A stretch of 64,000 bases of DNA, taken from NCBI GenBank assembly GCA_019459485.1, contig JAIBEZ010000017.1, positions 1,498 through 65,497 on the forward strand, written 5' to 3'. The translations under genes and the position numbers were made by a program. Under the pieces are notes generated by a model. That model had not been told where the DNA came from. It was given only the letters and a program-made list of their open reading frames with translations, and searched no databases. Positions 6,535-60,972 of this stretch are shown piece by piece. How positions within the stretch are numbered: position 1 is the stretch's first letter; each line of letters starts with the position of its first letter. The DNA comes from Prolixibacteraceae bacterium. GTDB taxonomy: Bacteria > Bacteroidota > Bacteroidia > Bacteroidales > Prolixibacteraceae.

Positions 6535-8454
6535 ATGAAAAAGCTTTTACTTCTGCTCATAATAGCTGCGTTTCAAAATGCAGCGGCTCAGGTTTCCGAT
6601 CCTGATTTTAACGATAAAATGGCATTCAGCGAAAGCCGGTCGTATCTGAAATCAGTGTCTTTTATCGAATCGGCTGAATATTCTTCGTACGATCTGGTTT
6701 ATCAGCGGTTGAATTTCGAGGTCGATCCGGCTGTTAATTATATTTCAGGATCGGTACTATCTAAAATTAAATTCCTGAAGCAAAATACTACTGAAATTCA
6801 TTTTGATCTTGCCTCGGCATTAATTGTTGATTCCGTTCATTTTGAAGGAAATGCGATTGTCTTTCAGCATCAATCAGATAAAATAACGATTTCACTTCCT
6901 GCAAACATTCAACTAAACAGCTTTCGTCAGGTGGAGATTTTTTATCATGGTTCGCCTCCTCAAACCGGTTTCGGTTCGTTCGTGGTTTCGAAACACAATG
7001 ATGTACCAGTATTATGGACCTTATCGGAACCATACGGAGCGCGCGATTGGTGGCCTTGCAAGCAAAGTCTGGCAGATAAAATTGATTCGGTCGATATCTT
7101 CATAAAGTCTCCCGGCCAATACAAAGCAGCCAGCAACGGAAAACTGATTTCGGATGACATTTCAGGAGAAAAACGAACCGCACACTGGCAACACCGTTAC
7201 CCTATTGCGACTTACCTTATAGGCATTGCTGTTACCAATTACGAAACCTATTCCGATTTCGTGGATTTACCCGGTGGAAACAAGGTTGAAATTCTGAATT
7301 ATATCTACCCGGAATACCTTGCTACTGCAAAATCAAAGTCGAACGAAACCCATGATATCATGACCTTCTTCAATTCAAGACTGATACCCTATCCGTTTGC
7401 CGATGAAAAATACGGACATGCGCAGTTTGGCTGGGGTGGGGGAATGGAGCACCAAACCATGAGTTTTATGACACATCTGAATTTCGAACTGGTTGCCCAC
7501 GAAATGGCCCATCAGTGGTTTGGCAATTACATTACGCTGGCGAGCTGGCACGACATCTGGCTGAATGAAGGTTTTGCCACCTACTTAACTGGACTTGTTT
7601 ACGAAAATTTACTCGATGGCGCTGGTTGGCCTGGTTGGAAGCAAAACCAGATTACACGTATCACTTCTTCGCCGGAAGGTTCTGTTTATGTCACCGATAC
7701 GACCAATGTCGGGCGAATATTTAGCGGACGGCTTTCGTATTCGAAAGGCGCTTATTTGTTGCACATGCTGCGCTGGGAAATGGGCGACGAGCCGTTTTTC
7801 AGAAGCTTGAAAAACTACCTGGAGGATCCGTCGGTTGCAAACGGTTTTGCCACCCACGATCAATTTGTGAAACACCTTGAAGCGGCCGCTGACACCTCGT
7901 TTACCGAATTTTTTAACGACTGGTATTATGGCGAAGGTTACCCCAAATACAACATCACTGAATTTCCCGGTGATTTGGGGACAACAAAAATTAGGGTGAG
8001 TCAGGTTGCATCGCATCCTTCTGTCAGTTTTTTCGAGATGCACCTGCCGGTCAGAGTGTGGAAAGACTCACAATTCAAGGATTTACGGCTGTACCATACC
8101 GAACAAAATCAGGAGTTTGTAATTTCTGAAGAAAAAGTAGATTCCATTCAATTCGATCCCGAAAAATGGTTGTGCGCCAAAGCCGACATTGTTTCACCGG
8201 CAAGGAACATTGCCAAATCAGAACAAATTCAAATTATTCCGGAATATGCGACAAAAAAAATCAGGATAATTTTGCCTGAATTTTCAGGAAAAGAAAGCTT
8301 CTGTATTTATGATCTGAATGGAAGAACTGTTTTGACTGGCATACTAAAAATGAAAGACTCGCGCATTGAAACCAATGCACTTAAAAATGGTATTTATCTG
8401 GTAGAAGTTAAATCGAAAAACATAAAAAGGGTTAAAAAACTGATTGTCGATTAA
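6535..8454 (+). CDS. M1 family aminopeptidase with probable T9SS C-terminal domain
   Basis: GGMEH and HEMAHQW-x-LNEG (HEXXH-X18-E); signal peptide from MKKLLLL; C-terminal IYDLNGRTV...LKNGIYLVEV. Confidence 0.9.
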   Translation: MKKLLLLLIIAAFQNAAAQVSDPDFNDKMAFSESRSYLKSVSFIESAEYSSYDLVYQRLNFEVDPAVNYISGSVLSKIKFLKQNTTEIHFDLASALIVDSVHFEGNAIVFQHQSDKITISLPANIQLNSFRQVEIFYHGSPPQTGFGSFVVSKHNDVPVLWTLSEPYGARDWWPCKQSLADKIDSVDIFIKSPGQYKAASNGKLISDDISGEKRTAHWQHRYPIATYLIGIAVTNYETYSDFVDLPGGNKVEILNYIYPEYLATAKSKSNETHDIMTFFNSRLIPYPFADEKYGHAQFGWGGGMEHQTMSFMTHLNFELVAHEMAHQWFGNYITLASWHDIWLNEGFATYLTGLVYENLLDGAGWPGWKQNQITRITSSPEGSVYVTDTTNVGRIFSGRLSYSKGAYLLHMLRWEMGDEPFFRSLKNYLEDPSVANGFATHDQFVKHLEAAADTSFTEFFNDWYYGEGYPKYNITEFPGDLGTTKIRVSQVASHPSVSFFEMHLPVRVWKDSQFKDLRLYHTEQNQEFVISEEKVDSIQFDPEKWLCAKADIVSPARNIAKSEQIQIIPEYATKKIRIILPEFSGKESFCIYDLNGRTVLTGILKMKDSRIETNALKNGIYLVEVKSKNIKRVKKLIVD

Positions 8455-10297
8455 GTTCTTTAGGAATTTCGAAAAAGAAAGTGGTACCTTTTTCAGGTTC
8501 TGAATCAACCCAGATTTTGCCACCAATTAATTCAACGAGGCCTTTGGCAATTGTCAGACCCAGGCCAATGCCACCGTATTTTCTGGAAAGGGTTTCATCC
8601 TCCTGCCTGAACTTTTCAAAAATGAAACATTGTTTTTCCGGTGAAATTCCTTTGCCGGTATCCTGAACAAAAAACCGAATGTGTTTATCCTGAATGGAAT
8701 AGCCGAAACGGATGAACCCGCTTTTTGTAAATTTTCCGGAATTATTAAGCAAAAGGCGGAAAATATGCCTGATTTTTAACTGATCTGAAACAACAATGCA
8801 TTGATCATCTGTAAGTTCCCTTATCAATTCAATAGTTAACTCAAGCTTGTCTTTAACCACCTTTTCTCCCTTGAACCAAATCAACAGCTCATCGAGAAGG
8901 CTATTCAAACAAAATGGAGATGTAGATAAACGAATTTGTCTGCTGTCGATTTTCGAAATATCTACAATGTTGGTAATCACATCGAGCAAACTTTGACTGC
9001 TGTCGTTGATAACATTAATGAATTCGTGGCGGTCTTCGTTTGATAAATTATCGTCATTAAGCAATTCTGCAAATCCCATTATACCGTTCATCGGGGTGCG
9101 CAATTCGTGCGACATGTTTGCCAAAAAGGATGTTTTCAGCCGATCACCTTCTTCCGCCTTTTCTAGTGCCGATTTGATTTCCTGTTCAGCTTTCTTTTGC
9201 TGAATTGAAGAGCTTATTTGTTGTGAAACGAACTCAAGCATATTTACATCTTCCGGGGTAAATGCGTTTTCATCCTCATAGCTTTGCAAAGCAAAAACGC
9301 CGATAGGTTTATCTTTTGTCAGCAATGGCAGACCCAGCCAAACCGCTGACGGTTCTCCCACAGATTTAACCAGACCGGCCTGTTTAAGCGCATCAACATC
9401 GGCCCGTTTTCCGAGCAGTGTCATTTTCGTTTTTATCACATAAGCCGACAACGATTTTCCGGCAGGGAAGCTTGTAATGTCGTCTTTTTCATCGGAATAA
9501 TAAGGTATTGTAAACGAATCAGAAATTTCATCATAAAGTGCGATGTAAAAATTTGTCACATCAATTAGTGATTCCAGCTGGTTCTGAATCATCAGAATCA
9601 GTTCGCCCAAATCATTTGACTTTGAAGTACATCTGGAAATGGAATACATTACTTTTTGTATTTGCTCGTCACGTTTACGTTTGGTAATATCTGTAAAAAC
9701 CGTTGCAAATTCACCAATTCGTGGGCTGAATGCCCAAACTTCAAAATATTTCCCTAATTCAACCGAATAGTTTTCAAACTGAACTGCTTCTCCAGTCAGG
9801 GCAACATTTCCATATAAGTCAATCCAGTATTTTTCAGTTTGCGGTAAAACCTCCTTTACTGTTTTTCCGATAATATAGCTGGCTTTCATGCCGGTTAGTT
9901 TTTCAAATGAGGGATTTGCCGAAAGATAGACATAGTCAACCGGCAGGCTGTTTTCATCCAGAATTATTTTATGGGACGCAAAACCCTGGGCTACATTTTC
10001 GAACATTAAACGGTAATTCGTTTCATTTTCCTGAACTTGTATGCTGTTTGCTTTTTCCTTCAATCCATTGACTGAAGCACTTGCCAACATTTCAATCAAA
10101 TTGTTGATTACGGAAAGATACTTGTCAGATTGTTCCTGCGATAATACGGGAACCTGATCACGTGCATGAACATATGCGATTTCTGACATTTTTTCATTTG
10201 TATCCTGTTGGAAAGTTGAGCCCGAATAAATTTCATTCAGGCCGTCAAGCATGGACTGAAACAATCTTACGTCTATCAGGTTGGGCATTTTAACCAT
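8432..10297 (-). CDS. PAS-GAF sensor histidine kinase
   Basis: PAS (ANPSFEKLTG), GAF (WLGLPL...GVFALQSY), H-box SHELRTPMNG, G boxes DTGKGI and GLGL. Confidence 0.9.
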   Translation of the reverse strand: MVKMPNLIDVRLFQSMLDGLNEIYSGSTFQQDTNEKMSEIAYVHARDQVPVLSQEQSDKYLSVINNLIEMLASASVNGLKEKANSIQVQENETNYRLMFENVAQGFASHKIILDENSLPVDYVYLSANPSFEKLTGMKASYIIGKTVKEVLPQTEKYWIDLYGNVALTGEAVQFENYSVELGKYFEVWAFSPRIGEFATVFTDITKRKRDEQIQKVMYSISRCTSKSNDLGELILMIQNQLESLIDVTNFYIALYDEISDSFTIPYYSDEKDDITSFPAGKSLSAYVIKTKMTLLGKRADVDALKQAGLVKSVGEPSAVWLGLPLLTKDKPIGVFALQSYEDENAFTPEDVNMLEFVSQQISSSIQQKKAEQEIKSALEKAEEGDRLKTSFLANMSHELRTPMNGIMGFAELLNDDNLSNEDRHEFINVINDSSQSLLDVITNIVDISKIDSRQIRLSTSPFCLNSLLDELLIWFKGEKVVKDKLELTIELIRELTDDQCIVVSDQLKIRHIFRLLLNNSGKFTKSGFIRFGYSIQDKHIRFFVQDTGKGISPEKQCFIFEKFRQEDETLSRKYGGIGLGLTIAKGLVELIGGKIWVDSEPEKGTTFFFEIPKELNRQSVF

Positions 10298-13263: not shown

Positions 13264-13402
13264 TTTTAACGTGTTGTTGATAAGGGGAACAAAAATAGTA
13301 AAAGCTTTGTTTTTATCGGCTTGACTTCTAGTCTTAAACGTTAATTATTCTTAACTGAATTTTTTCGCTATTTTGTGCTCCCGAATTTATAATTGGTATT
13401 CA

Positions 13403-14848
13403 ATGTCGAAACTTCAGATTTTCAAAAAATATCCTTCCCTGTTTTGGGTGGCCAACATCATCGAATTGTTTGAGCGTTATGCCTGGTATGGTTTTTACAT
13501 GGGTTTTGGCCTTTTTCTGGTGGGTTCGAAAGAAACCGGTGCCATGGGATTTTCGCCGGTTGAAAAAGGTGCGATCATGGGAACCGGCTCCATGTTGCTG
13601 TATTTTCTACCCATCCTGACAGGCGCCATTGCCGATAGAATCGGGTACAAAAAGGTGTTGTTACTGGCTTTTCTGCTATACAGTTCCGGATTTTATATGA
13701 TCCAGCAGTTCGACAGCTTCGGAATGGTTTTCTTTTCATTCATCTGGATTTGCGTGGGTGGGGCATTTTTTAAGCCCGTCATTTCGGCAACCATATCAAA
13801 AACAACCAACGAAGAAACGGCTTCCATCGGGTTTGGAATTTTTTACATGATGGTGAACATCGGCGGATTTATCGGCCCCTTTGTTGCCGGAATTGTACTG
13901 GGAAAAGGCTGGAATTTTGTGTTTATGTTGTCGATCGCAGCCATTGCAATTAACTTTCTGATTACGCTGTTATTTTTCAAGGAACCCAAAGAAATAAAGG
14001 AATCCACCACTTTCCTGAAATCTGTATTTCAACCGTTTATAAATATATTTTATACAATTATCAACTGGCGGTACAGCATGTTTTTGCTGATCATGTCGTT
14101 GTTTTGGGCAGCTTTCAACCAACTTTATTATTCGTTCCCGAATTTTGTGGTCGATTGGGTAAACACTGCAACCCTTTACAACGGAATTCATTCATTTTCA
14201 CCCTGGCTGGCCGAATTGATTGGATCCGATCCCGGGAGCATTGCCTTGACATTGAGTAGTATGGATGCTTTTTTTATCATTGTATTCCAATTGGTAGTTT
14301 CGGCATTTGTTATGCGATTCAGGCCACTGAATGCCATGATGGGCGGCATATTTGTTTTGGCTGTTGGCCTTGGAATGATGTTCTCGTTTCAAAACGGATG
14401 GATTATTCTTTTGGGATTGCTGATTTTTGGATTGGGCGAAATGGGGAGTTCGCCAAAATACACCGAATATGTGGGCAGCATTGCACCTCCCGACAAAAAA
14501 GCCTTGTACATGGGTTCATCGTTTCTGCCGATTGCTTTGGGACATCAGATTGCAGGTTTTATTTCCGGCGCACCTTACGAAAAAATTGCCGATAAACTTT
14601 TTCTCCTGAAATCAGAAGTCGCGAAACGCGGTTTAACCATTCCTGAAATAGTGGACGGATCGTTTACCAAAACCGACTATTTCAACGAAGCAGCCCGGCA
14701 GATGAACTTCAGTCAGCAACAATTGACCGATTTCCTTTGGACAAGTTATCACCCGCAGTCCATCTGGATTATTTTCAGTTCGCTGGCTTTAAGCGCTGTT
14801 GTTCTATTATTTTTGTACGACCGGTTTATTTTGCCGAAGAAAGAATAA
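13403..14848 (+). CDS. MFS transporter, POT/peptide-transporter-like
   Basis: ELFERYAWYG (ExxER) motif, GAIADRIG motif A, about 12 hydrophobic helices; start at MSKLQIFK. Confidence 0.85.
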   Translation: MSKLQIFKKYPSLFWVANIIELFERYAWYGFYMGFGLFLVGSKETGAMGFSPVEKGAIMGTGSMLLYFLPILTGAIADRIGYKKVLLLAFLLYSSGFYMIQQFDSFGMVFFSFIWICVGGAFFKPVISATISKTTNEETASIGFGIFYMMVNIGGFIGPFVAGIVLGKGWNFVFMLSIAAIAINFLITLLFFKEPKEIKESTTFLKSVFQPFINIFYTIINWRYSMFLLIMSLFWAAFNQLYYSFPNFVVDWVNTATLYNGIHSFSPWLAELIGSDPGSIALTLSSMDAFFIIVFQLVVSAFVMRFRPLNAMMGGIFVLAVGLGMMFSFQNGWIILLGLLIFGLGEMGSSPKYTEYVGSIAPPDKKALYMGSSFLPIALGHQIAGFISGAPYEKIADKLFLLKSEVAKRGLTIPEIVDGSFTKTDYFNEAARQMNFSQQQLTDFLWTSYHPQSIWIIFSSLALSAVVLLFLYDRFILPKKE

Positions 14849-14855
14849 AACAATT

Positions 14856-15064
14856 CCGTTCACTGAAGTGAACGGCAAAGGATATCTTACAATTAACAAA
14901 TATATATGATATTTAACGAGATAATATCCTTTGCTCCCGATTTTCATCGGGACAGGCTGTCTGGCTTGAGCCAACGGACGAAATGAAAATAGAAAAAAAC
15001 CGTCTGCGCAGTAATGATTTTTAAAGTGTTTCCTATTTTCGGACGCCTGCCAGCCGCAGGCAGG
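14856..15064. repeat. Cluster of different REP-like palindromes
   Basis: CCGTTCACTGAAGTGAACGG (14856-14875), GCAAAGGATAT/ATATCCTTTGC pair, TCCCGATTTTCATCGGGA (14935-14952), CCTGCC..GGCAGG (15046-15064). Confidence 0.6.
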
Positions 15065-15065
15065 G

Positions 15066-15103
15066 AATAGATGTCCCATTCAAAAATAGATGTCCCATTC
15101 AAA
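15066..15103 (+). repeat. 19-bp tandem direct repeat x2
   Basis: AATAGATGTCCCATTCAAA at 15066-15084 and 15085-15103. Confidence 0.9.
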
Positions 15104-15144
15104 AATGGACAATACAATAGAGATAAATAATTCAAACTGAAAGA

Positions 15145-16257
15145 ATGCAAAAACTCTTCATCATATTCTGCCTGATTTTGTTTGCAGCCCAACTTCAGGC
15201 TCAAACCCTGATTGATCTGAACAATCACTACAAAAACCTTGATACCACAGAGGTGAAAGAATTGAATTTCCGTTTCGAGAGCATGAGCTTTTTTCACAAT
15301 ACCGAATACATGGGCGATATTGTGGATGGTTACACCTGGACAGGCGCATGGGTACGGCCAAAGCTGAGCTATACTTTTTCTGAAAAACTGAAACTGGATG
15401 TTGGCGGTCACTTTTTGAGATACCATAGCCGCGATGATTTTACCGTTGTGCGTCCATGGTTTTCGGCACAATACCAGATGTTTCCGAAAATGAAAGCCAT
15501 TTTTGGAAACCTGAACGTAAATAAAAATCAGGGTTTGGTGAAACAACTTTGGGAACCGGAACGGATCATGACCGATGCCCCGCGCGAAGGCGTTCAGTTT
15601 TTGTACGAGTCGAAATACTTTGAGATGCAAAACTGGATGGGTTGGGAACAGTTTATTTTACGTGGCGATCCGTACCAGGAACATTTTACATTCGGGCTGA
15701 GTGGCCGCGCACAAATATTCCCCAATTCCGGTCTCAAAATTCACATACCCTTGCAAGTTCTGATTTACCACATGGGAGGCGAAATCGATTCGAGTCCGCT
15801 GGGGGTGGTTACCGATTTAAATTATGCCACCGGTCTTGAAACGCAATTCGATGTTGGCGGATTCCTGAAAGACATTGATTTGAACTTGCATTGGATTGGA
15901 TACGACTGCCCCGACGGACCAGCGCCTTATGGTTACAAAAGCGGACATGGTTATTCGGTAACTGTTGCCGGAGATACCCGTTTCGGAAAATTTTCGCTTG
16001 ATTACTGGAATGCTTACCAGTTTATAGCGCCCTACGGAAAACGCATTTACATGTCGATTTCAGACCGCGACATTGCTCTTTCCCAGCAGGATCGCTCGCA
16101 GGTAGCTTTCAATTATATGATGAAACAGCACATTCTGAAAGACATCGAATTTGCCTTTCAGGGCGAAGCACTCTACGACTTCCTGACCACCAAATTCTCA
16201 TTTGCTTTTGGATATTATTTGGTGATTAATCAGGATTTTTTGCTGAAGAGGTTTTAA
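15145..16257 (+). CDS. Probable outer-membrane beta-barrel protein of unknown function
   Basis: Signal peptide MQKLFIIFCLILFAAQLQA, alternating aromatic-rich strands, C-terminal Phe. Confidence 0.65.
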   Translation: MQKLFIIFCLILFAAQLQAQTLIDLNNHYKNLDTTEVKELNFRFESMSFFHNTEYMGDIVDGYTWTGAWVRPKLSYTFSEKLKLDVGGHFLRYHSRDDFTVVRPWFSAQYQMFPKMKAIFGNLNVNKNQGLVKQLWEPERIMTDAPREGVQFLYESKYFEMQNWMGWEQFILRGDPYQEHFTFGLSGRAQIFPNSGLKIHIPLQVLIYHMGGEIDSSPLGVVTDLNYATGLETQFDVGGFLKDIDLNLHWIGYDCPDGPAPYGYKSGHGYSVTVAGDTRFGKFSLDYWNAYQFIAPYGKRIYMSISDRDIALSQQDRSQVAFNYMMKQHILKDIEFAFQGEALYDFLTTKFSFAFGYYLVINQDFLLKRF

Positions 16258-16268
16258 AATTTACCCAC

Positions 16269-17522
16269 ATGCTGACCGAACGTGAACACATAGGGATTTT
16301 TGGCAAAATGAATTCAGGCAAAAGTAGCCTGATGAATTTATTGACCCAACAGGAAACATCCATTACCGATTCAACTCCCGGCACTACCGCCGATGTGAAA
16401 ATTGCCCTTCAGGAAATTCATGGATTGGGGCCTGTAAAGTTTTTCGATACGGCTGGGCTGGATGAAGGAACACTTCTTGGCGCTAAAAAAAGGGAAAAGG
16501 TGATGAATGTGCTGAAGGAATGTGACCTTGTTTTATTGGTCATCGACCCGTCAACCAAAGTATTTGATTCTGAAAACCAAATTATTGAGGCAGCGCGTGA
16601 GCTTGACAAGCAGATATTGGTTATTTATAACCTGTTTGAAATAGCGGGCAACAGGCTTCCCGATGAAATCGAAACGCAGATTCCTTTGTTGAAATTTATT
16701 CCTTCTATTACCTTATCTGCAATAGACGTTTCGTTCCGACAGTCGCTCCTGAACTTTATTCTTAACAATTATGATCCGAAGTTTCAGAAAACGGACTTAC
16801 TGCCTTTCGTTGAAAAGGATCAGTTTTACATTCTGAATATTCCTATGGATGAAGAAACGCCGCCGGGGCGATACCTCCGTCCACAGGCAATGGCCGAGGA
16901 ATACATTACACGAAACTGGGCATTTCCGATTTCGTACCGGATGAATTTAGGAGTCGCCCGTAGCGAAAACCCGCAGCCGGAAAAAGATCGTTTCGATGCT
17001 TTTCTGAATAGCCTGGGTCGTAGGCCAAAAGCCCTTATTACCGACTCGCAGGCCATGGATATCATGGCAAAATGGACGCCTCCGGATATTATGCTGACCA
17101 CCTTTTCGATCATGATGATCAATTTTATGAGCAAGGGAAGGATTTACGAATTTTATGAAGGCATCAAAGCCCTCGATAAGCTGCAACCCGGCGACAAGGT
17201 GCTGATTGCCGAAGCATGCAACCATTCGCGGATCAACGAAGATATCGGGACTGTACAAATTCCGCGAAAAATTAACCAAACGTTTCCGGGTGTAATCATC
17301 GACCATAATTTTGGCAGGGAATTTCAGACAAACAGCGAATTGGGCAACTACAAACTGATCATCCATTGCGGTGGCTGTATGATCAGTCACCAAAAATTAC
17401 AGGCCCGCCTGCGCGATTTGCGCCATGCCGGTGTTCCAGTAACCAACTACGGGGTGTTTCTTTCGTGGATGCAGGGACAGGCAGCGCTGGAGCGGGTAAT
17501 GGAACCATGGAGAAAAGATTAA
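16269..17522 (+). CDS. hydF: [FeFe]-hydrogenase maturation GTPase HydF family
   Basis: GKMNSGKS, PGTT, DTAG, and C-terminal EACNH...HCGGCM Fe-S motif, VPVTNYG. Confidence 0.88.
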   Translation: MLTEREHIGIFGKMNSGKSSLMNLLTQQETSITDSTPGTTADVKIALQEIHGLGPVKFFDTAGLDEGTLLGAKKREKVMNVLKECDLVLLVIDPSTKVFDSENQIIEAARELDKQILVIYNLFEIAGNRLPDEIETQIPLLKFIPSITLSAIDVSFRQSLLNFILNNYDPKFQKTDLLPFVEKDQFYILNIPMDEETPPGRYLRPQAMAEEYITRNWAFPISYRMNLGVARSENPQPEKDRFDAFLNSLGRRPKALITDSQAMDIMAKWTPPDIMLTTFSIMMINFMSKGRIYEFYEGIKALDKLQPGDKVLIAEACNHSRINEDIGTVQIPRKINQTFPGVIIDHNFGREFQTNSELGNYKLIIHCGGCMISHQKLQARLRDLRHAGVPVTNYGVFLSWMQGQAALERVMEPWRKD

Positions 17523-17528
17523 TTTTAA

Positions 17529-17585
17529 TTCGCCTTTGGCAATTATTTGGTTGTCAATCAGGATTTCTTGCTGAAGAGGTTTTGA
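17529..17585 (+). repeat. Second copy of the 3' end of the 15145..16257 gene
   Basis: 48/57 nt identical to 16201-16257; translates FAFGNYLVVNQDFLLKRF* versus FAFGYYLVINQDFLLKRF*. Confidence 0.9.
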
Positions 17586-17591
17586 TGAAAT

Positions 17592-17629
17592 AAAAAAGAG
17601 AAGCTGCCAACTGGCTGAGCAGCTTCTCT
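17592..17629. terminator. Intrinsic terminator (U-run on minus strand; may be bidirectional)
   Basis: AGAGAAGCTGC / GCAGCTTCTCT stem preceded by an A run. Confidence 0.7.
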
Positions 17630-17748
17630 GATGTATAAAACTTTGTTAAGTAAAGCTTATTATCCTATGCTTAGTGTTATTTCACAACTAATTTAACTTG
17701 CAGGTTTCCTTGTATTTAACCCGAAATATATAATCGTTCGTTCTCATT

Positions 17749-18498
17749 TTATTTGTTTTTTATAATTTTTAAATAGTCTTCCGATAAACTCATCACTTTA
17801 TTTACAGTATCAGAGTCAATGATTAAAATATAAGCAACATTTAATAACATTAATTCATTGTTATTGTATTCTTCAATAAGGGGTTGATACTTGTCGAGGT
17901 ACATAATCCGCGATAAAATAGCACAGGTTGTCATCATTCCAGCAATGCCCCAGATTTGATGTGCCAACTCATACTTTTTCTTTTGATTATCAAGCGCCAA
18001 TTGAAACAGCTCTAATTTTTCACGAGCGGTCAGGTCGTTCAGGATTTCATACTGGGCAATTATGAGTTCATGCCTGACAATGTTGTCTATATACCTTCCA
18101 TTTTCTAAATCGGTATAGGATTGCCAGTCCCTGTTAAAATCCAATTGTTTGTACAAACTAATTAATCTCTGATATTTATCTCCCCTTCCAAACAACTCTT
18201 CAAGACCGTTGCACATTTCATAAACCTTGTCGAATCCACCTTGCAGATCAGACATTGTCCATATCAAGCTCATTTTTGGATAACTGATGCAGGATTTAAT
18301 CAATGCATCGGTTGAAAGGCAATGCAAGGTTTGTTCGGGAATCTTGAACATTTTTATCTGCTCATCAAAAGGTTTACCGAATGCAGCCTCAATCGGATAA
18401 ATGTAAGCTTGATCAAAAACTACTTCGCAGTTATTTTTCTTACAACCAATTACAAAGAAGAAAAAACACAATAACAATGAAATTTTTCTATAACCCAT
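17749..18498 (-). CDS. Hypothetical lipoprotein
   Basis: Start at MGYRKISLLLCFFFFVIGC with lipobox; visibly AT-rich DNA. Confidence 0.7.
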   Translation of the reverse strand: MGYRKISLLLCFFFFVIGCKKNNCEVVFDQAYIYPIEAAFGKPFDEQIKMFKIPEQTLHCLSTDALIKSCISYPKMSLIWTMSDLQGGFDKVYEMCNGLEELFGRGDKYQRLISLYKQLDFNRDWQSYTDLENGRYIDNIVRHELIIAQYEILNDLTAREKLELFQLALDNQKKKYELAHQIWGIAGMMTTCAILSRIMYLDKYQPLIEEYNNNELMLLNVAYILIIDSDTVNKVMSLSEDYLKIIKNK

Positions 18499-18742
18499 CT
18501 GAAAGGATTTTGTCATTCTCCATTACAATATTATTCATTGTGGGTGGTTTTTGTATAATATTCTGTTAATATAAATAGTAAGTTATGAATAACAAAATTT
18601 ATTTTGCCAGTTCAATTTTAATGTACTCATAGCTAGATTGTTAAAAATTCATGTTTCATAACACGAGTTAGATTAATTAGATTGAACAAAAAAAGAGGGT
18701 TGCTTTTTTGCGGTTTTGGGAATAAACAAAATAGTGAAAGTT

Positions 18743-19249
18743 TCAAATGGAAAACCTCCAAAGCCGATCTTTCCACTCGCCCGAGTACTCAATACCGACC
18801 CGTTTTGAAGTGCGTATTTCTGAAACAGGTTCTGCATCTTCCACCCAGATCCGTTGGGAATTAATCAGGCTTTCGCCGTAAAACGAGCGATCGAGTTGAA
18901 GTTCGCGTCCCACGCGTCCAGGTCCGGGAAAACCTTCGATACCGCGGATCAGCACTGCCGAAGCATCGCCTTCGCTGCCGGTCACGAAATTAAGTAACCA
19001 ATATTGGCCATATATAAGGTACACGTAAACGGTTCCGCCTTCCTGAAACATGACTTCGGTGCGCGGTGTTCGTCCTTTGCTGGCATGGCAGGCCAAATCT
19101 TCTGTTCCGCGGTAAGCTTCAACTTCGGTAATCATGTATTTCCCGATACTTCCGTCAGGAAAGCAACGGACCAGTTTTTTGCCAATCAGTTCAGGGGCAA
19201 CTTGCAGCACGTCGCGCAGGAAAAATTCAGGAAGAAGACGCGTATTCAT
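18743..19249 (-). CDS. mpg: DNA-3-methyladenine glycosylase (MPG/AAG family)
   Basis: ITEVEAY, DLACHA, GTVYVYLIYG, AVLIR, GPG, RVGI motifs. Confidence 0.92.
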   Translation of the reverse strand: MNTRLLPEFFLRDVLQVAPELIGKKLVRCFPDGSIGKYMITEVEAYRGTEDLACHASKGRTPRTEVMFQEGGTVYVYLIYGQYWLLNFVTGSEGDASAVLIRGIEGFPGPGRVGRELQLDRSFYGESLINSQRIWVEDAEPVSEIRTSKRVGIEYSGEWKDRLWRFSI

Positions 19250-29535: not shown

Positions 29536-30864
29536 TTACAAAACAATGGATTGGCCATTGTAAAAGTCAAGAATTTTTGTCCTGAAAATGTATTCGTATT
29601 TGGCCTGAAGCAAATCGCTCTGGGCATTGGTGAGGTTATTTTTTACCTGGTTGTATTCAACAGAATTGATCATTCCCACGTTGAATTTTTCTTCTGTATA
29701 ACGAAAAGCTTCCGTCGAAGAAACAACCGCTTTCTGGTTCGCAACATATCTTTTGAATGATGCAAGTGCGTTGGTGTAGGCTTGCTCAATGTCTTTCCTG
29801 AGTAAATTTTTGGTGCTTTGTAATTGCAGTTCCGTATTTTCAACCTGAATTTGTGCATTGCTCACCCCGGTTTGTGCCTGATAACGGTTAAAAATCGGTA
29901 TGTTGAGTGATGCTCCAAAGCCATAGCGCTGATTACCTTTAAACTGATCTTTAAGTGAAGCCGTTGGATAATCGAATAAGTTTTGATAGAAGTTATTATA
30001 ATTACCGCCGAATGATAGTGTGGGCATCAGGTTTCCTTTCGCAATTTCCAGTTGTTTACGTGCACTCTCAAGTTTAAACTCGGCGCCTTTTACAGCCGGC
30101 CTGATTTGCACCGCATTTTTAAATACATCCATCGAATTCAACATGGTCATGTTGGCACTAATTTCAGGAAGTACCGGTTTTTCGATTTTAAAACTTTCGG
30201 AAGAGGGCAATTCAAGAAACTGGTACAAGCTGAGATAGGCCAGTTGAAGCCTGTTTTGAGCATTTACAACATTCAATTCTTCACGGGCATATTGCGCTTC
30301 TATTTCAAGCAAACTTCCTTTTGCCAGGCTTCCGGCTTCAACCAGTTTACCAGTGCGGTCGATCTGAAGCTGGGTTATTTTCAGGAGGTCTTCTGTAACG
30401 ATCAGCAATTCATCGGCAAAAAGTATTTCAAGGTAAGATGCAGCAATGTTGAGCATGATATCATCTTTTGCCTTTTGCATTTCTTCCAGACTGGCACGCA
30501 AATCCATCTCTGCCATTTTTATGGAATTTTTAAGTGTAAATCCATTCCAAACAGTAACATTCGAGCTTAGATTTCCAGAGGTTGAATTTGAATTGATATC
30601 CAGATAGGTATTATCCGGTCCAAGTGATCTTCCAAAACTCATGTTGTTCTGAAATCCTGCATTCAGGTTTGGCAGGCGGTTATACTTTGCCTGTTGGTGC
30701 TGATTGTTGTAATATTCTGAATTCAGAGCCTGCTGTTTGATCTGGATGTTGTTTTCAAGCGCGTAATCAATACATTTCTGTAACGACCATGTTTGCTGGG
30801 CCTGCGCACCCGTAAAAACAACCAGCATGATAGCTGCGGCAATGAGGCTGTACATTCGTTTCAT
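29536..30864 (-). CDS. TolC family outer-membrane efflux protein
   Basis: WSLQKCIDYALENN, LPNLNAG, two OEP repeats, YNVG...LLQAKYEY. Confidence 0.92.
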   Translation of the reverse strand: MKRMYSLIAAAIMLVVFTGAQAQQTWSLQKCIDYALENNIQIKQQALNSEYYNNQHQQAKYNRLPNLNAGFQNNMSFGRSLGPDNTYLDINSNSTSGNLSSNVTVWNGFTLKNSIKMAEMDLRASLEEMQKAKDDIMLNIAASYLEILFADELLIVTEDLLKITQLQIDRTGKLVEAGSLAKGSLLEIEAQYAREELNVVNAQNRLQLAYLSLYQFLELPSSESFKIEKPVLPEISANMTMLNSMDVFKNAVQIRPAVKGAEFKLESARKQLEIAKGNLMPTLSFGGNYNNFYQNLFDYPTASLKDQFKGNQRYGFGASLNIPIFNRYQAQTGVSNAQIQVENTELQLQSTKNLLRKDIEQAYTNALASFKRYVANQKAVVSSTEAFRYTEEKFNVGMINSVEYNQVKNNLTNAQSDLLQAKYEYIFRTKILDFYNGQSIVL

Positions 30865-30969
30865 ATTTTATAGTGTTTGTTTTTTTTATTTCCTGATACC
30901 TTTCCGTCCGATGAACCAGTTTCTTTAAATAGCATGATTCCGCGGACGGTTTCTCTTTTTTTATTCGTT

Positions 30970-31058
30970 ACCCCAGGGCTTCGTTCGTTTCTCACTTGCC
31001 GTTCGGCTGAGCTCACGCCGAAGCCCTGGGTTATTGATATATCACCCTTTCAGGGTGA
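30970..31058. repeat. REP-like composite palindrome
   Basis: CCCAGGGCTTCG/CGAAGCCCTGGG arms, inner TTCGGC-TGAGCTCA-CGCCGAA, then GGTTATT and TCACCCT/AGGGTGA hairpin. Confidence 0.65.
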
Positions 31059-31155
31059 GGAATTATTCCATTCAACTGTTTTCTATAGTCTTCAGTCCAT
31101 TCTATCAGATAAGTTTTTTAAACCTGAAACTTGGAACTTGAAACCTGGAACTTCT

Positions 31156-32280
31156 TTATGCTTTTTTCTTTTCTTCTTCCTTCACTTTCTTCGGATCAAT
31201 CTTTTCGCCTTTTACCTTATCGGTCTTGGCCAGCCCTTCAGTCACTTCGATGTTGATTCCGTCGGAAATTCCGGTTTTTACCATTCGTTTTTCGAATACC
31301 TGCGGAGTCATTGTTTCCACTTCAACAAACGACGAGTCTTTTTCAAACTTCAGTAAGCCTTCAGGAATAACCAACACGCTGTCTTTCTTTTCGAGAACGA
31401 TGTTTGCGTTGGCGCTGTACCCGGCCCTAATAAACTGATCTTCCTTCAGAACTACATTTGCTTTTATTTCAAACTGAATGGCGCCATTCTCTTCTTTACC
31501 TTTTGGGGCAATGTATTCGAGTATTGCTCCGAATTTATCTTTTTCAATCGCACCAATTTCAAGTTCGATGTTCATTCCTTCCTTGATTTTGCCGACTTCA
31601 GTTTCATCCACTTTTCCTTTGAAAATCATGTCCTGCATATCGGCCACGGTACAGATGGTGGTTCCGTTGTTAAAGGTATTCGATTGAATGACCGAGTTTC
31701 CTTCTTTGATCGGAACATCCAGCACCATTCCGTTTACTGTTGAACGAACAAGCGTATTAGTAGCCGTTGATGCCCTTTTTGTTACACCGTTTCTAATTAA
31801 TTCCAGATTATTTTCAGCTGCCGATAATTCCTCCTTTGCCGCATCGTAGCTAACTTTGGCATTTTTGTATTCATTGTACGAAATTACTTTCTGATCGTAC
31901 AATTTTTGCTGACGGTCGTAATCGATTTTTGAATCGTCGAAACTCAATTGCGCACGGTTGAGGCGGGTTTCAGCATTGTTCAGGTTTACCATATCAGGAA
32001 TAATCTTGATTTTGGCAATCACCTGGTCTTTCTTTACAAAGTCGCCGGCAACAATGTACAATTCGTCAATAATTCCTGAAACCTGGGGCACAATATCGAT
32101 TTCTTTGCGCGGAACAACCGAGCCTGTAGCAACGGTTTTGCGGATAACATTCGATACAAACGGGCTTTTTGTCTCGAATACTTCAGGTACTTTTTTTGAT
32201 TTGGTGTAGAGAAAGTAGATCGTTCCTCCGAAAATCCCCACAAGGATTACAATTCCTAAGATTCTAAAAATTTTTTTCAT
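31156..32280 (-). CDS. Periplasmic adaptor (MacA-like membrane fusion protein)
   Basis: N-terminal TM, VATGSVVP..PQVSGII, VDETEVGKIKEG; start at MKKIFRILG. Confidence 0.9.
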   Translation of the reverse strand: MKKIFRILGIVILVGIFGGTIYFLYTKSKKVPEVFETKSPFVSNVIRKTVATGSVVPRKEIDIVPQVSGIIDELYIVAGDFVKKDQVIAKIKIIPDMVNLNNAETRLNRAQLSFDDSKIDYDRQQKLYDQKVISYNEYKNAKVSYDAAKEELSAAENNLELIRNGVTKRASTATNTLVRSTVNGMVLDVPIKEGNSVIQSNTFNNGTTICTVADMQDMIFKGKVDETEVGKIKEGMNIELEIGAIEKDKFGAILEYIAPKGKEENGAIQFEIKANVVLKEDQFIRAGYSANANIVLEKKDSVLVIPEGLLKFEKDSSFVEVETMTPQVFEKRMVKTGISDGINIEVTEGLAKTDKVKGEKIDPKKVKEEEKKKA

Positions 32281-32360
32281 GGTTTTGTTTTTATATGTTT
32301 CTGTTTTTCTGTTTTTCAAAAATTACAAGCTAATTCGAAATCTATAATTGTTAATTGCCA

Positions 32361-33623
32361 TTACCCTTCGTCACGAATGGCATCAATTGGCTTTATGCTA
32401 ACTGCTCTTTTTGCCGGTATCAGCCCGGCGATTATTCCGGCAACAACCAAAACAGCCAGTGCCGATAGTGCCATCGTGAGGTTTATCTCCGGATTCCGAA
32501 AGAATAATTCGTCACCACCTTTCAGCAATATTTGGTTTAGTATTTCGAGTACGCCAACTCCCAGCGACAAACCTATGTAACCGGCCATTACAGTCAGGAA
32601 TACACTTTCGGCAACAATGTGTTTAATAACTGTTGCCGGAGTGGCACCAATTGCCCGCTGTATCCCGATTTCCTGGGTTCGTTCCTTGATAATTACCAGC
32701 ATGATGTTGCTCACACCAATTACCCCGGCCAGAAGTGTTCCGATTCCAACAATCCATGTCAGACCCTGAATGCCCAGGAATAATGCGCTGAATTTGACGA
32801 ATTCTTTTTCGATGTTGAAGGACCCAATGGCCTGTTGGTCTTCAGGGGCAATTTTATGGCGGTCTTTTAGCAAGGTTTTTAGTTTTTCTTCCAGATCGCT
32901 TACTTTGGTTCCGGGTTTTGATGTTACTGAGAAAAAATATACCCGGTTACCGAAATTATATGCTTTCCGCATGGTTGTAAACGGGATAATGATGGTTTCT
33001 TCTTTTTTGCCACCACCAATATTAATCCTCGTTTCAGCATGAATAACACCCACCACCTGAAAATAAACACCGCTAATTTTCAGGTATTGTCCTATCGGGT
33101 TTTCATCTTTGTCAAACATAACTTCAGCAACACGTTCGCCAATGTTGCAGACTTTTCGTTCCTGAAGCAAGTCAATTTCGTTGATCAATCGACCCTGAGC
33201 CGGAGTCCAGCGATCGATTTTGAAATAGTCGGGATAATCGCCAAACACATTAAATGCACCGGTACGTTCGCCGCGAATGGTATTATTGCCTGTTTGGTTA
33301 TTGCCAAACAATCGGGGCGACAGATATTCTACTTCTTTCACATTGTCGCGGATATAATCGATATCGCTTGTTTCGTAGTTCCAGCGACGGCCCCGTTGAA
33401 ATCCTTCATAAGGCACGCTGGTTCGTTCGGTCCAGAAGAAGGCCGAGTTGGTTGCAAATGCCTTCACTCCGTCAAGTACGCCATTTTCGAGCGCTTTCCC
33501 TGCCCCCGACATGATGACGAGCATGAAAATTCCCCAGAAGACGCCGAAGGCTGTCATAAAACTGCGCAGTCGATTTTTTTTCAGTGCGCTGACTATTTCT
33601 CTCCAAAGGTCTAAATCAAACAT
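32361..33623 (-). CDS. ABC transporter permease (MacB/FtsX type)
   Basis: RSFMTAFGVFWGIF, KERTQEIGIQRAIGA, IPAKRA..PIDAIRDE. Confidence 0.92.
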   Translation of the reverse strand: MFDLDLWREIVSALKKNRLRSFMTAFGVFWGIFMLVIMSGAGKALENGVLDGVKAFATNSAFFWTERTSVPYEGFQRGRRWNYETSDIDYIRDNVKEVEYLSPRLFGNNQTGNNTIRGERTGAFNVFGDYPDYFKIDRWTPAQGRLINEIDLLQERKVCNIGERVAEVMFDKDENPIGQYLKISGVYFQVVGVIHAETRINIGGGKKEETIIIPFTTMRKAYNFGNRVYFFSVTSKPGTKVSDLEEKLKTLLKDRHKIAPEDQQAIGSFNIEKEFVKFSALFLGIQGLTWIVGIGTLLAGVIGVSNIMLVIIKERTQEIGIQRAIGATPATVIKHIVAESVFLTVMAGYIGLSLGVGVLEILNQILLKGGDELFFRNPEINLTMALSALAVLVVAGIIAGLIPAKRAVSIKPIDAIRDEG

Positions 33624-33633
33624 GGCTTTAGTT

Positions 33634-34884
33634 TTATTCGTCGCGCAGGGCAACTATCGGTTTAATACTGGCAGCTCTTTTTGCCGGAATGTAACCCGCA
33701 AACGCACCTGCAATGATGAGCAGCAAAGTGGAATATACGGCAATGTTAATGTCAACAGTAGGGTTCATAAATATGGTTTCGCTCTGGTCGGTAGCCGGTA
33801 CTGCTGATTGCATCATAAAATAGTTGATCATTTCCATCAACCCTGTTCCTAAAACCAGGCCGATGTAACCGGCGATGGTGGTTATCATGATCGATTCAAG
33901 CAAAATCAGGCCAATTACTGACGACGGACTTGCACCGATGGCTTTTCGGATTCCAATTTCTTTGGTGCGTTCTTTTACGACAATCAGCATAATATTGCTG
34001 ACACCCACAATTCCGGCAATCAAAGTACCAATCCCAATGATCCAGATGAAAATTTTGATGGCCTGGAATATTTTCATGGTTTGGATATAATTTTCCAGCT
34101 TGTTATACAATCCAATAGCGCCTTCATCTTTGGGGTCAAATTTATGTTTCTTGCCCAGTGCTGTTCTGATTTGTTCTTCAATAGCCTGGCTTTCTTCAAG
34201 GGTCGAAGCATTTATGGTAAGGGCCAGATTATGAATTTTGTTTGAACCATTAAAAATCATTTGTGCAGTTGAAAGCGGCATGTAGGCATTCCGGTTCCGG
34301 GTTGATCCCGGTTCCGAGCAAATTCCTACAACTTTAAAAGGAACCATATTTATATTTACATACTCGCCCAATGCTGTGGAATCCTTAAAAAGAGCAGTCT
34401 TAATATCAGTGCCGATGACCACTATTTTTCGGTTCTGGAGTATATCAATCTGATTAATGAAACGGCCTTCATTCAGGATAAGATTTTCAACATCTCTTAA
34501 AGCGGGTTGACAGGTTATTGTGGTATATTCTCCCGATTCTTTTCCGTAAGAATACCGGGTGTTTCCCATAAAATACCGGCCTGACGATGCGCCGACTCCC
34601 GAAACTTTTGACACAATATCCTGATCCTGGTTCTGAAAACTGATTGGTCTTCCGGTTTTCATCCCTTCATAAGCAATGGTGGTTTCTCCATTCCAAATCC
34701 ACATGGCGTTTACTGCATCGTTCATAAAGTTTGCAGCTACACCGTTGCTCAAACCGTTTCCGGAACCCAGTAAAATCATCAGCATAAAAATTCCCCAGGC
34801 GACAGAAAATCCGGTGAGGAATGTCCGCATTTTATTTTTTTTGATAGTGGCAAGAATTTCCTGCCAAATGTCAATGTCAAACAT
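33634..34884 (-). CDS. ABC transporter permease (MacB/FtsX type)
   Basis: RTFLTGFSVAWGIF, KERTKEIGIRKAIGA. Confidence 0.92.
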   Translation of the reverse strand: MFDIDIWQEILATIKKNKMRTFLTGFSVAWGIFMLMILLGSGNGLSNGVAANFMNDAVNAMWIWNGETTIAYEGMKTGRPISFQNQDQDIVSKVSGVGASSGRYFMGNTRYSYGKESGEYTTITCQPALRDVENLILNEGRFINQIDILQNRKIVVIGTDIKTALFKDSTALGEYVNINMVPFKVVGICSEPGSTRNRNAYMPLSTAQMIFNGSNKIHNLALTINASTLEESQAIEEQIRTALGKKHKFDPKDEGAIGLYNKLENYIQTMKIFQAIKIFIWIIGIGTLIAGIVGVSNIMLIVVKERTKEIGIRKAIGASPSSVIGLILLESIMITTIAGYIGLVLGTGLMEMINYFMMQSAVPATDQSETIFMNPTVDINIAVYSTLLLIIAGAFAGYIPAKRAASIKPIVALRDE

Positions 34885-34894
34885 GGCTTCAGGA

Positions 34895-35620
34895 TTAAGC
34901 GGTTTCGAGTCCGTGGATGTATTCTTTCTGGAACTGTTTTAGTTCGCCGTTGCGGATAATTTCGTGAATCCGTCCGTCGTTCAACCTGATGATCTGACTC
35001 GTCATGGCAGCAATGTCGTGTTCATGGGTAACAATGATTACGGTTATCCCGTCATCGTTAATTTCTCGCAGGATGTCCATTACTTCATAAGAGTTTGCTG
35101 AATCCAACGCTCCGGTAGGTTCGTCAGCCAGAATTATTTTTGGTTGCGAAATCAAGGCACGTGCAATGGCTACGCGTTGTTTTTGTCCTCCCGACATTTC
35201 GTTCGGCATGTGGTTCGCCCATTCTTTTAAACCTAATTTATCGAGGTATTCCAATGCAATCAGATTACGCTTTTTCCTTGGAACTCCCTTATAATAGAGG
35301 GGAAGCGCCACATTTTCCATCGCGTTTTTAAACGAAATCAGGTTGAACGACTGAAATACGAAACCGACCATTTCGTTTCTAAGCTTGGCGGCTTTTTTTT
35401 CGCTCATGTTCGCAATAAGATTGCCTGACAAATGGTAAGTACCGTTGTCATAATTGTCGAGCATCCCCAAAATGTTCAAAAGGGTTGACTTCCCTGAACC
35501 AGAGGAACCCATGATGGAAACAAAGTCGCCCTGTTCTATATGGAGGTCGATACCTTTCAGAACATGGAGACTACTGCTTCCCATCTCATAGGATTTGTGA
35601 ATGTTGTTTAATCTGATCAT
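34895..35620 (-). CDS. ABC transporter ATP-binding protein (MacB/LolD type)
   Basis: Walker A GSSGSGKS, MSGGQKQR signature, ILADEPTGALD; start at MIRLNNIH. Confidence 0.95.
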   Translation of the reverse strand: MIRLNNIHKSYEMGSSSLHVLKGIDLHIEQGDFVSIMGSSGSGKSTLLNILGMLDNYDNGTYHLSGNLIANMSEKKAAKLRNEMVGFVFQSFNLISFKNAMENVALPLYYKGVPRKKRNLIALEYLDKLGLKEWANHMPNEMSGGQKQRVAIARALISQPKIILADEPTGALDSANSYEVMDILREINDDGITVIIVTHEHDIAAMTSQIIRLNDGRIHEIIRNGELKQFQKEYIHGLETA

Positions 35621-35822
35621 GGCATTGTTTTCTGTTAGTTTTCTGTTCAAAATTCGGTAATAATGGTTTTTCGATCTCATTTATTTCGATGAATCGTCGG
35701 TTTCGATCTGTAAAACGGTTAAAAAGTCAGTTTTAACGGAATAAACACGCACAAAACACCGGTAAATTAAAATTGCTGACCATTCTGTTTTCTGTTTCTG
35801 AATTTTCTTTACACCGAAGTAT

Positions 35823-55029: not shown

Positions 55030-55064
55030 AGCAGGGGGCAGATCATAGCACTCTGCCCCCTGCT
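55030..55064. terminator. 13-bp hairpin between convergent genes (terminator or REP)
   Basis: AGCAGGGGGCAGA / TCTGCCCCCTGCT. Confidence 0.65.
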
Positions 55065-57462: not shown

Positions 57463-57506
57463 TGGTTTAGGTTTGAGTTTACTGCTATAAAGCTATAAAC
57501 TTTACC

Positions 57507-58427
57507 TTACCTTCGACCTGGATTATTCTGATCATTTCTGTTTCCACTGCTATTTCTTTGACTTTCAGTATTACTGTTGCTCCTCCGGGGAGTTTCGGTT
57601 GAATTTTGAATTCGCATTTGTCTGTCTACCTTCACTGGCTGACCAATGGGTACGCCGTAATAGTTTGTGTCGTGAGTTCTTCTTGTCTCCGGTGCTTTGG
57701 CAGGTTGCGGGCGGGAAGTATTATCAGTGCTCTTAGTGGAATTTAATCTGTTATTTTCGTTTTCAGTCTGTCTGTTTACCGGACTGTTAACTGGATTTTC
57801 TGCCCGATTGGCGTTATTGTTCCGGGAATTGTTGTTGGCAGAACTGTCAGTGGATTGTCTGCTGATGCCGGAATTATTCATATTCCTTTGTTGCTGACGG
57901 TCTTCTTTCGAGTATCTGAACTGACGGCCGGCTCTCAGATTTTCATCATTCCAGTTCCGTGCCCGGTCTCTTTCATTCTCTGACCAGTAAATTGCACTGC
58001 TGCTATTTTCGTTAAATCCTCTTACATAAGCAAAATTACTGCGATCGTAATAATCGCGATAGTAATATCTTGGAAAATGCGAAATATAATACTGGTGATG
58101 CATCCAGGGTTGATACATATTCGAATTCACTACGACAATAAAAGAATTATTCAGATTAAAATCCGGGTATATAGTAGGGAGATAAGGTGAATAAATCCAT
58201 TGTGCATGGTTCAGAAAAATAAATTCACGGGTGTAAATGTCGTAATAGCTTTCGATGTCGGGCAAATAGTAATAGCGTGTTCCGCCATAATAGGATGGAG
58301 CCCATTGCGGATTTTCATAATTGGTTTGTGATCCGTAAGTTCCCTGGCGGTAGGTATTACATCCGTTAAATGAGGTCATGGAAAGAAGCACAACAGCTAC
58401 TACCACCCATTTTTTAAATTTTTTCAT
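57507..58427 (-). CDS. Hypothetical lipoprotein, Tyr-rich core and R/N/S/Q-rich disordered tail
   Basis: Lipobox FNGC; PQWAPSYY..RYYYLPDIESYYD. Confidence 0.7.
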   Translation of the reverse strand: MKKFKKWVVVAVVLLSMTSFNGCNTYRQGTYGSQTNYENPQWAPSYYGGTRYYYLPDIESYYDIYTREFIFLNHAQWIYSPYLPTIYPDFNLNNSFIVVVNSNMYQPWMHHQYYISHFPRYYYRDYYDRSNFAYVRGFNENSSSAIYWSENERDRARNWNDENLRAGRQFRYSKEDRQQQRNMNNSGISRQSTDSSANNNSRNNNANRAENPVNSPVNRQTENENNRLNSTKSTDNTSRPQPAKAPETRRTHDTNYYGVPIGQPVKVDRQMRIQNSTETPRRSNSNTESQRNSSGNRNDQNNPGRR

Positions 58428-58536
58428 TTGTTGAGTTATTTAAAACAATCACAGGTAAAAGTAAGCTCAACATCACGCAAAATTTTTACATATTTCCTTT
58501 TAAAAATTACATAATTCACACATCAGTAAGTTCACA

Positions 58537-58564
58537 GTAGAGACAAGGCATGCCTTGTCTCTAC
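58537..58564. repeat. Perfect 28-bp GTAG-type REP palindrome
   Basis: GTAGAGACAAGGCATGCCTTGTCTCTAC. Confidence 0.88.
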
Positions 58565-60948: not shown

Positions 60949-60972
60949 GATTCCATTGTTTTACTTCATTTA

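Follow-up and report, generated by a model that had tools for sequence, protein, structure and literature searches.

How can the end of one gene come to stand on both sides of another while the first gene stays intact? The question is raised by a stretch of 64,000 nt from a Prolixibacteraceae bacterium (GCA_019459485.1, contig JAIBEZ010000017.1; hereafter the window), in which the last 19 codons of a gene for an outer-membrane beta-barrel protein occur twice, bracketing a hydF-like GTPase gene at 16269-17522 (Table 1). A first-pass annotation explained the arrangement by a segment carrying a replacement 3' end plus hydF that had recombined into the barrel gene and displaced its native end, much as an island integrates in a gene terminus, and gave the remnant of a deleted paralog as the alternative. 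The comparison of related loci presented here supports that explanation in part, but not its island analogy, its direction of displacement or an easy excision. With a probability that we put at about 60%, recombination between haplotypes that differed in their cargo, together with a single illegitimate joint where hydF stops, left a displaced tail behind. The second copy is best read as a scar that ordinary recombination left at a highly variable site of the chromosome, and not as a mobile island.

The two tails, copy 1 at the end of the barrel gene and copy 2 behind hydF, are identical at 48 of 57 nt (16201-16257 versus 17529-17585). Eight codons differ, six of them synonymously (TAA/TGA among them) and two by Tyr to Asn and Ile to Val replacements, exactly as first described. 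That description had copy 2 starting 6 nt after the hydF stop, whereas the similarity begins at the hydF stop codon itself (16193-16255 versus 17521-17583, 53/63). The second-best match to copy 1 in the window reaches 34/63, the maximum over 50 shuffles being 36/63, and copy 2 scores 53 bits by a position-specific scoring matrix (PSSM) of the tail, with which 40 shuffled loci gave nothing above 12 bits. The longest block identical in the two copies measures 16 nt. Copy 2 shares the hydF frame but comes after TAA TTT TAA and is therefore untranslated. Both junctions are 100% identical in independent metagenome contigs from three bioreactor runs (X1-X3), and a related metagenome-assembled genome (MAG), L002, carries the same structure; the arrangement is therefore real and no assembly artefact. 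The mostly synonymous differences would fit divergence while both tails were functional in different lineages. Of the earlier view that both copies look shaped by selection, it is this past function that agrees with the differences, while present selection on copy 2 is not indicated.

An alignment of the barrel protein was used to scan one genome per species, which yielded 77 loci from Prolixibacteraceae and, at greater distance, Marinifilaceae. The conserved gene order is S41 peptidase (-), major facilitator superfamily (MFS) transporter (+), barrel (+), the methylpurine-DNA glycosylase gene mpg (-) and rplM. When the spacing between the barrel and mpg stop codons was tallied over 78 loci, 28 were found to be empty sites, with the barrel stop -9 to +16 nt from the mpg stop; 12 hold other cargo between the two genes, and in 32 other DNA follows the barrel gene and mpg is out of reach. 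hydF stands directly behind the barrel gene in five loci of the 78, and additionally in L003, where it follows an ATPase gene. Cargo types include an ATPase_2 protein, type IX secretion system (T9SS) substrates, outer-membrane proteins (OMPs), a TonB receptor, a DUF4258 protein and a methyltransferase. No integrase, transposase or recombinase was found among the 36 largest open reading frames (ORFs) of the window, those beside the locus included, that were scanned with Pfam, nor among ten cargo ORFs sampled from seven related loci. Relatives with an empty site had been predicted and do exist, the barrel stop there abutting the mpg stop, as does a relative in which the barrel gene runs into the terminator: in L004 the gene ends in a copy-2-like tail with a TGA stop and is followed directly by a similar hairpin. 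Neither of the contrary outcomes that had been named was encountered, since empty sites are not lacking and tandem barrel paralogs flank hydF in 0 of the 77 loci.

Extra barrel tails, sought in the related loci with the tail PSSM and nucleotide alignments, are confined to the window's closest clade (barrel identity at least 91%), in which the tails are structural strands of 84-95% identity. Their extents vary, from 63 nt in the window, L001 and L002 to about 100 nt in L005, while in L003 the tail-derived part is a 5' fragment alone, TTTTCGTTTGCCTTTGG (3/500 shuffles), located between the ATPase gene and hydF. Soil contigs (X4) break within copy 2 at 17544. The remnants at 8406-8471 of L001 and 3312-3378 of L002 are orthologs of copy 2. 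In L001, the remnant and the hairpin behind it match the window at 89.5% over 219 nt, an ATPase_2 gene on the opposite strand occupies the place of hydF, so that the cargo between the tails has turned over, and the remnant bears a 6-nt deletion. In L002, hydF is followed at once by a tail with an intact frame, and 2 kb farther on lies a third, decayed one, giving three tails in a row of which the most distal is the most decayed. The L005 remnant lies behind 4.6 kb of cargo and directly abuts mpg, which is the ancestral position. A displaced barrel end beside acquired DNA, as the first-pass annotation supposed, is what copy 2 represents. Over its last 130 nt the barrel gene of L001 shares 96% identity with that of L003, compared with 88-89% farther upstream, and this jump indicates that the barrel 3' end travels with adjacent cargo. 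Unlike L001 and L003, the window shows no clear shift of affinity; its last 130 nt are nearest to L008 (90%), by a lead of a few sites.

Two further comparisons bear on where the joints fall. L163 and L164 have upstream cargo and leader alike, but after the hydF stop L163 continues into the barrel tail and L164 into mpg; the illegitimate junction is therefore exactly at the hydF stop and independent of the DNA upstream of hydF. L163 has the same hydF/remnant junction as the window behind other cargo and a full leader, which speaks against the proposed "replacement end plus hydF" as a fixed unit. In L020, a mirror scar is found at 7120-7440, where about 100 codons from the 3' end of mpg, interrupted by stop codons, abut the barrel stop. 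This pseudo-end is 80% identical to the functional mpg (8704-9201), from which a methyltransferase gene separates it. Barrel tails are therefore not the only gene ends to be displaced in this way. With no integrase or transposase in the scanned ORFs, variable remnant lengths, the ATPase gene of L001, the L163 junction and this mirror remnant, an island-like, site-specific picture is not supported.

From these observations we infer homology-facilitated illegitimate recombination or a similar process, with the following order of events. In the ancestral state, barrel and mpg would have been convergent, with almost zero spacer between their stop codons. Given so little spacer, DNA could be added without gene loss only if a gene end were supplied anew, and surviving insertions would therefore carry a re-supplied gene end. 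Two haplotypes would then have recombined, one with hydF next to the barrel gene and the other with the order barrel, hairpin and other cargo. One crossover may have been homologous, on either the barrel/MFS side or the mpg side, and the other would have been illegitimate, joining the hydF stop codon to barrel codon -20. The outcome would be that hydF has a complete, functional tail before it and an orphan tail of 63 nt behind it, the latter now apparently decaying (one nonsense and two missense changes). Only short tails would be seen because long remnants would be unstable. Finally, a later deletion may have taken most of the hydF leader or the material between the barrel stop and hydF, which would be why hydF now stands 11 nt behind the barrel stop. 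It is probably co-transcribed with the barrel gene, its own promoter probably lost and the gene read through from upstream. One RNA contig, from a related population in soil, runs across a barrel-hydF junction, and four soil metatranscriptomes give coverage of hydF relatives. As for the direction of displacement, which had been given as copy 2 being native, copy 2 may be either the genome's native end or the leading edge of an incoming downstream segment; the structure does not separate these.

Several points weigh against such a recombination scar. The microhomology between the hydF-stop junction and the barrel gene is at most 2-4 nt (AA/AAT), which is non-diagnostic. Both hydF junctions are very tight, with a shared stop codon on the left and zero spacer on the right, which would be expected of random illegitimate joining only if selection for compactness followed. 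The remnants of the window and L002 differ at 8/63 sites, compared with 40/150 four-fold sites in hydF (Fisher p=0.03), which suggests that the remnant is somewhat conserved beyond what would be expected for a neutral scar. We know of no natural transformation or other DNA-uptake route in this lineage. In addition, the parental haplotypes have no exact match among the loci compared.

The behavior of hydF itself is relevant to the other explanations. Its homologues form a continuum within the family, and those at 79-86% identity occupy three other chromosomal contexts, namely DUF2442/hydF/Band_7 or malic enzyme, CTP_transf/hydF and DUF5522/hydF/DapB (L158 592-1839, L160 5001-6251, L162 5001-6248 and L165 5001-6248). 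A leader, ttattttttcatttttaaggTAAaattacacacATG, is common to L003, L035, L078, L158, L163, L164 and one X4 contig; it is roughly 46-60 nt long and accompanies hydF both at the barrel locus and, in L158, in the DUF2442 context. The window and L002 keep just its TAA and the following 11 nt, and type-A barrel genes elsewhere mostly end in TGA. Judged from these contexts, hydF seems to occupy different places in the chromosomes of close relatives, without mobile-element genes in its vicinity. The leader was also considered as an old, decayed barrel tail (the roughly 45 nt conserved before hydF in L003, L035 and L078). Its alignment to the tail is no better than that of shuffles (34-350/500 equal), and the same leader in the unrelated context of L158 also rules this out. 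In 0.5 Mb of hydF-seeded metagenome loci scanned for barrel tails, two weak matches alone were obtained (13 and 20 bits); the tails therefore do not follow hydF elsewhere. A moving gene of this kind could be accommodated by regarding the barrel/mpg junction as a dedicated capture site and hydF with its leader of roughly 46-60 nt as a nomadic single-gene unit, moved by something other than a locally encoded integrase, the tails serving as portable homology arms for reversible cargo exchange in which the barrel gene is never inactivated. We regard this as unlikely.

It is also improbable that the locus reflects site-specific integration of a replacement tail plus hydF into an att site within the last 20 codons of the barrel gene, by a recombinase encoded elsewhere, in the manner of an island at a gene terminus or of an integron cassette. 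The direct repeats that bracket hydF and the restored gene end would follow from such an event, and hydF with its leader of roughly 46 nt does form a discrete unit in at least four chromosomal contexts (79-100% identity), among which homology stops at the hydF stop codon. However, the ORFs scanned in the window and in the cargo of relatives contain neither an integrase nor a transposase, the other hydF contexts are without flanking repeats, and remnant boundaries are inconstant (63 nt, about 100 nt, a 5' fragment and the X4 break at 17544). The same tails flank an ATPase gene in the opposite orientation as well as cargo of several kb, copy 1 is without an attC-like fold (-6.8 kcal/mol, z=+1.2), and neither the mpg remnant of L020 nor the remnant junction of L163, where no replacement tail lies beside hydF, would be expected.

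No more credible is a landing pad, in which a tandem duplication of the barrel tail and stop came first and hydF or other cargo was inserted between the copies later. The exchange of hydF in the window for an ATPase gene in L001, between what looks like a fixed tail pair with the same remnant and hairpin, is what such a pad would produce. Adjacent tails free of cargo occur, however, in 0 of the 77 loci, remnant lengths vary by locus, and the hydF stop is fused straight to the remnant, the same hydF end being fused to mpg in L164. Two rare events would also be required where one suffices.

A present function for copy 2, as an RNA hairpin that stabilizes or ends the hydF transcript or as a homology arm for reversible gain and loss of cargo, appears quite improbable. 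The region 17521-17590 is predicted to form two adjacent hairpins (-18.6 kcal/mol, z=-2.5), the second stem strengthened by a copy-2-specific T>C at 17566 and the TGA-T context, and copy 1 has no such fold. The remnant of L002 still has an intact reading frame, and its conservation relative to the window above four-fold sites (p=0.03), mentioned above, points the same way. On the other hand, the z-score is modest, no remnant lies behind hydF in L015, L035, L037, L078 or L164, and the remnant of the window contains a nonsense codon, that of L001 lacking 6 nt. The 16-nt limit on identity with copy 1 argues against a homology arm, and also against the suggestion that recombination between the copies could excise hydF, which is possible in principle; no hydF-less joint was seen in the contigs of the three runs with the exact genotype, where a read depth of 3-5x gives no power. 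An RNA joint leading from 17585 to 16257 (X22, back 1329) was considered as the junction of an excised circle and rejected, as the upstream part of the contig is barrel sequence. It corresponds to the barrel-hydF junction of a relative, whose tail is closer to copy 2 than to copy 1.

That copy 2 is the residue of an almost wholly deleted second tandem barrel gene, the alternative of the first-pass annotation, is hardly tenable, for although one MAG with two barrel loci (L024 and L029) shows that paralogs can exist, tandem or hydF-flanking barrel pairs occur in 0 of the 77 loci, remnants never exceed the last 11-34 codons, and that of L005 lies exactly where a single ancestral tail abuts mpg.

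Table 1. Coordinates of the features at the barrel locus, as positions in the window.
Feature	Position	Strand	Description
MFS transporter gene, conserved left flank	13373..14848	+	Pfam MFS_1; syntenic 5' of the barrel gene in most Prolixibacteraceae loci
Outer-membrane beta-barrel gene	15145..16257	+	370 aa; PF28590; distant relative of the LpxZ lipid A deacylase family
Copy 1, functional tail	16193..16257	+	Closing beta-strand residues 350-361, C-terminal residues 362-370 and stop codon
Leftover of hydF leader	16255..16268	+	TAA + 11 nt; end of a leader of roughly 46-60 nt; TAA now the barrel stop
hydF-like GTPase gene, intact	16269..17522	+	417 aa; Pfam MMR_HSR1, HydF_dimer, HydF_tetramer
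Copy 2, displaced barrel pseudo-tail	17521..17585	+	Reads F*FAFGNYLVVNQDFLLKRF*; untranslated
Hairpin	17597..17629	-	About -20 kcal/mol, z about -4.5; minus-strand U-tract 17587-17596
Hypothetical cargo gene	17749..18516	-	255 aa; no Pfam/NCBIfam match; 78% identity in L001; absent from empty-site loci
Methylpurine-DNA glycosylase gene mpg, conserved right flank	18743..19249	-	Pfam Pur_DNA_glyco; convergent with the barrel gene

The elements around the tails can be described more briefly. The strong hairpin that follows copy 2 had been called the terminator there, and its presence holds. Since the U-tract is on the minus strand and the hydF side has just an A-tract, it serves chiefly to terminate the convergent cargo gene, perhaps with weak activity in both directions. 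The module of tail and hairpin is also present in L001, in L002 (after the third tail) and in L004 (after the functional tail). An Rfam scan of window positions 14700-18800 returned zero matches. The hydF translation contains CxH...HCxxC and scores 317 bits against TIGR03918, for which the cut-off is 325.55; "hydF-like" appears a fair label for the gene. No hydE, hydG, hydA or hydrogenase genes were found among the 36 largest window ORFs scanned.

The barrel protein had no match in the copy of Pfam searched, PF28590 being found on its homologues. Against NCBIfam LpxZ_fam (NF052651) it scores 191 bits, below the cut-off of 460, and by this measure it is merely a distant relative of LpxZ, which is the Porphyromonas gingivalis lipid A deacylase PGN_1123 (PMC11784228). 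Its AlphaFold model has 16 strands at a predicted local distance difference test (pLDDT) score of 79.7, with residues 350-361 as the last strand, and its fold matches in the PDB are porins (template modeling (TM) score about 0.5). On the strength of this model, the closing strand and the short C-tail that copy 1 supplies are presumably indispensable to the protein.

The barrel gene is itself variable, with two deeply divergent alleles at one locus (about 44-46% amino acid identity, DNA unalignable). In L015 (5934-7119) and L037 (5817-7143), which are equivalent to window 15145-16257, the flanks are 92.5% identical on both sides and the barrel alleles unalignable, one breakpoint falling in the spacer between the MFS and barrel genes and the other precisely at the barrel stop codon. 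This difference looks like a precise allelic replacement of a surface protein, and it shows frequent homologous exchange at the barrel locus. An alternative C-terminus, DFL[IL]S[ST][VLT]K[RFH]*, with a three-residue insertion and, in most of the loci that have it, no terminal Phe, was observed with both allele types (L006:3743-3811, L030:5989-6057, L034:7051-7119, L040:7048-7116 and L047:3691-3759). The endings DFL[IL]SS[VL]KR* of these loci were considered as shared insertion junctions; the downstream DNA is unrelated, and they were instead taken as allelic tail variants. Upstream of the gene, a perfect 19-nt tandem duplication (AATAGATGTCCCATTCAAA x2) is located at window 15066-15103, 42 nt before the start codon. 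A GC-rich hairpin at 15031-15071 (GCCTGCCAGCCGCAGGCAGG) is present in a single copy in the window, and many X1-X4 metagenome contigs diverge into differing flanks at it, which suggests a short dispersed repeat in these communities. The MAG with two barrel loci is a Sunxiuqinia genome (JBBIHV01); at one of the two (L024, 228-1081) the barrel gene is preceded by fragments of mpg and of the MFS gene fused side by side, so that the same neighborhood has been rearranged in another way as well. Farther along the window, three consecutive minus-strand ORFs of about 795-799 aa, about 2.4 kb each, occupy 55063-63360. MacB_PCD and FtsX domains were identified in both of those scanned, 55063-57462 and 58561-60948, and more MacB/FtsX, HlyD and OEP genes are found at 29536-35680.

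What the locus offers is a clean and well-sampled case of how genes are added at a junction without free intergenic space, where one of two abutting convergent genes has its end re-supplied and the old end stays as a datable scar. For annotation, such pseudo-tails should not be called genes or att sites. Both the lipid-A-deacylase-like barrel, with two divergent alleles swapped precisely between close relatives, and a hydrogenase maturation gene that moves its chromosomal address among close relatives are worth following.

The pattern has parallels in known systems. C-terminal displacement and orphan 3' ends are reportedly a feature of Rhs, contact-dependent inhibition (CDI) and type VI secretion system (T6SS) loci, and are said to have been described by Jackson and colleagues in 2009 and by Poole and colleagues in 2011. 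As in those loci, the body of the gene is conserved and retains a functional 3' end, and older ends lie downstream in the same orientation, sometimes serially, as with the three tails of L002; an intact gene is followed in this way by one displaced 3' fragment or more in the window, L001, L003, L005 and L002, the last with two remnants. Cargo likewise accumulates between displaced ends. Unlike in those loci, the displaced ends are near-identical barrel-closing strands and not alternative toxin domains, the cargo consists of hydF, ATPase_2, T9SS proteins, OMPs and a methyltransferase and not of immunity genes, and the tail itself has no evident diversifying role. Displacement of 3' ends thus extends beyond polymorphic toxin loci. 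For orphaned 3' ends that arise by sequential displacement, homologous anchoring combined with an illegitimate junction has been proposed (Kirchberger et al., 2017; PMC5361080).

Islands and integrative elements that insert at the end of a tRNA or protein gene and bring a replacement for it, with duplication as attL and attR, resemble the locus in that the inserted DNA lies between direct repeats of the 3' end and the gene itself is left whole. They differ in that here no integrase was found in the ORFs scanned, there is no constant core or boundary, the cargo is a single gene or arbitrary DNA in either orientation, and the neighboring convergent gene, mpg, is scarred likewise. Integron cassettes are similar as single, nearly promoterless genes in one orientation with repeats of about 60 nt between them, but no IntI was found among the 36 window ORFs, cargo orientation varies, and the repeats are coding sequence of the upstream gene, copy 1 having no attC-like fold and copy 2 a weak one. 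Homology-facilitated illegitimate recombination combines one homologous anchor with one junction of little or no homology and would explain a foreign segment with a leftover of the resident gene on one side (de Vries and Wackernagel, 2002; Prudhomme et al., 2002; as related in PMC5361080 and PMC3240628). The experiments recounted in those sources concern a few transformable species and Escherichia coli conjugation, whereas here the process is deduced from comparative structure alone. Ultimately, the duplicated tail around hydF adds a further example to a class of recombination scars already known, at an unusually variable locus.

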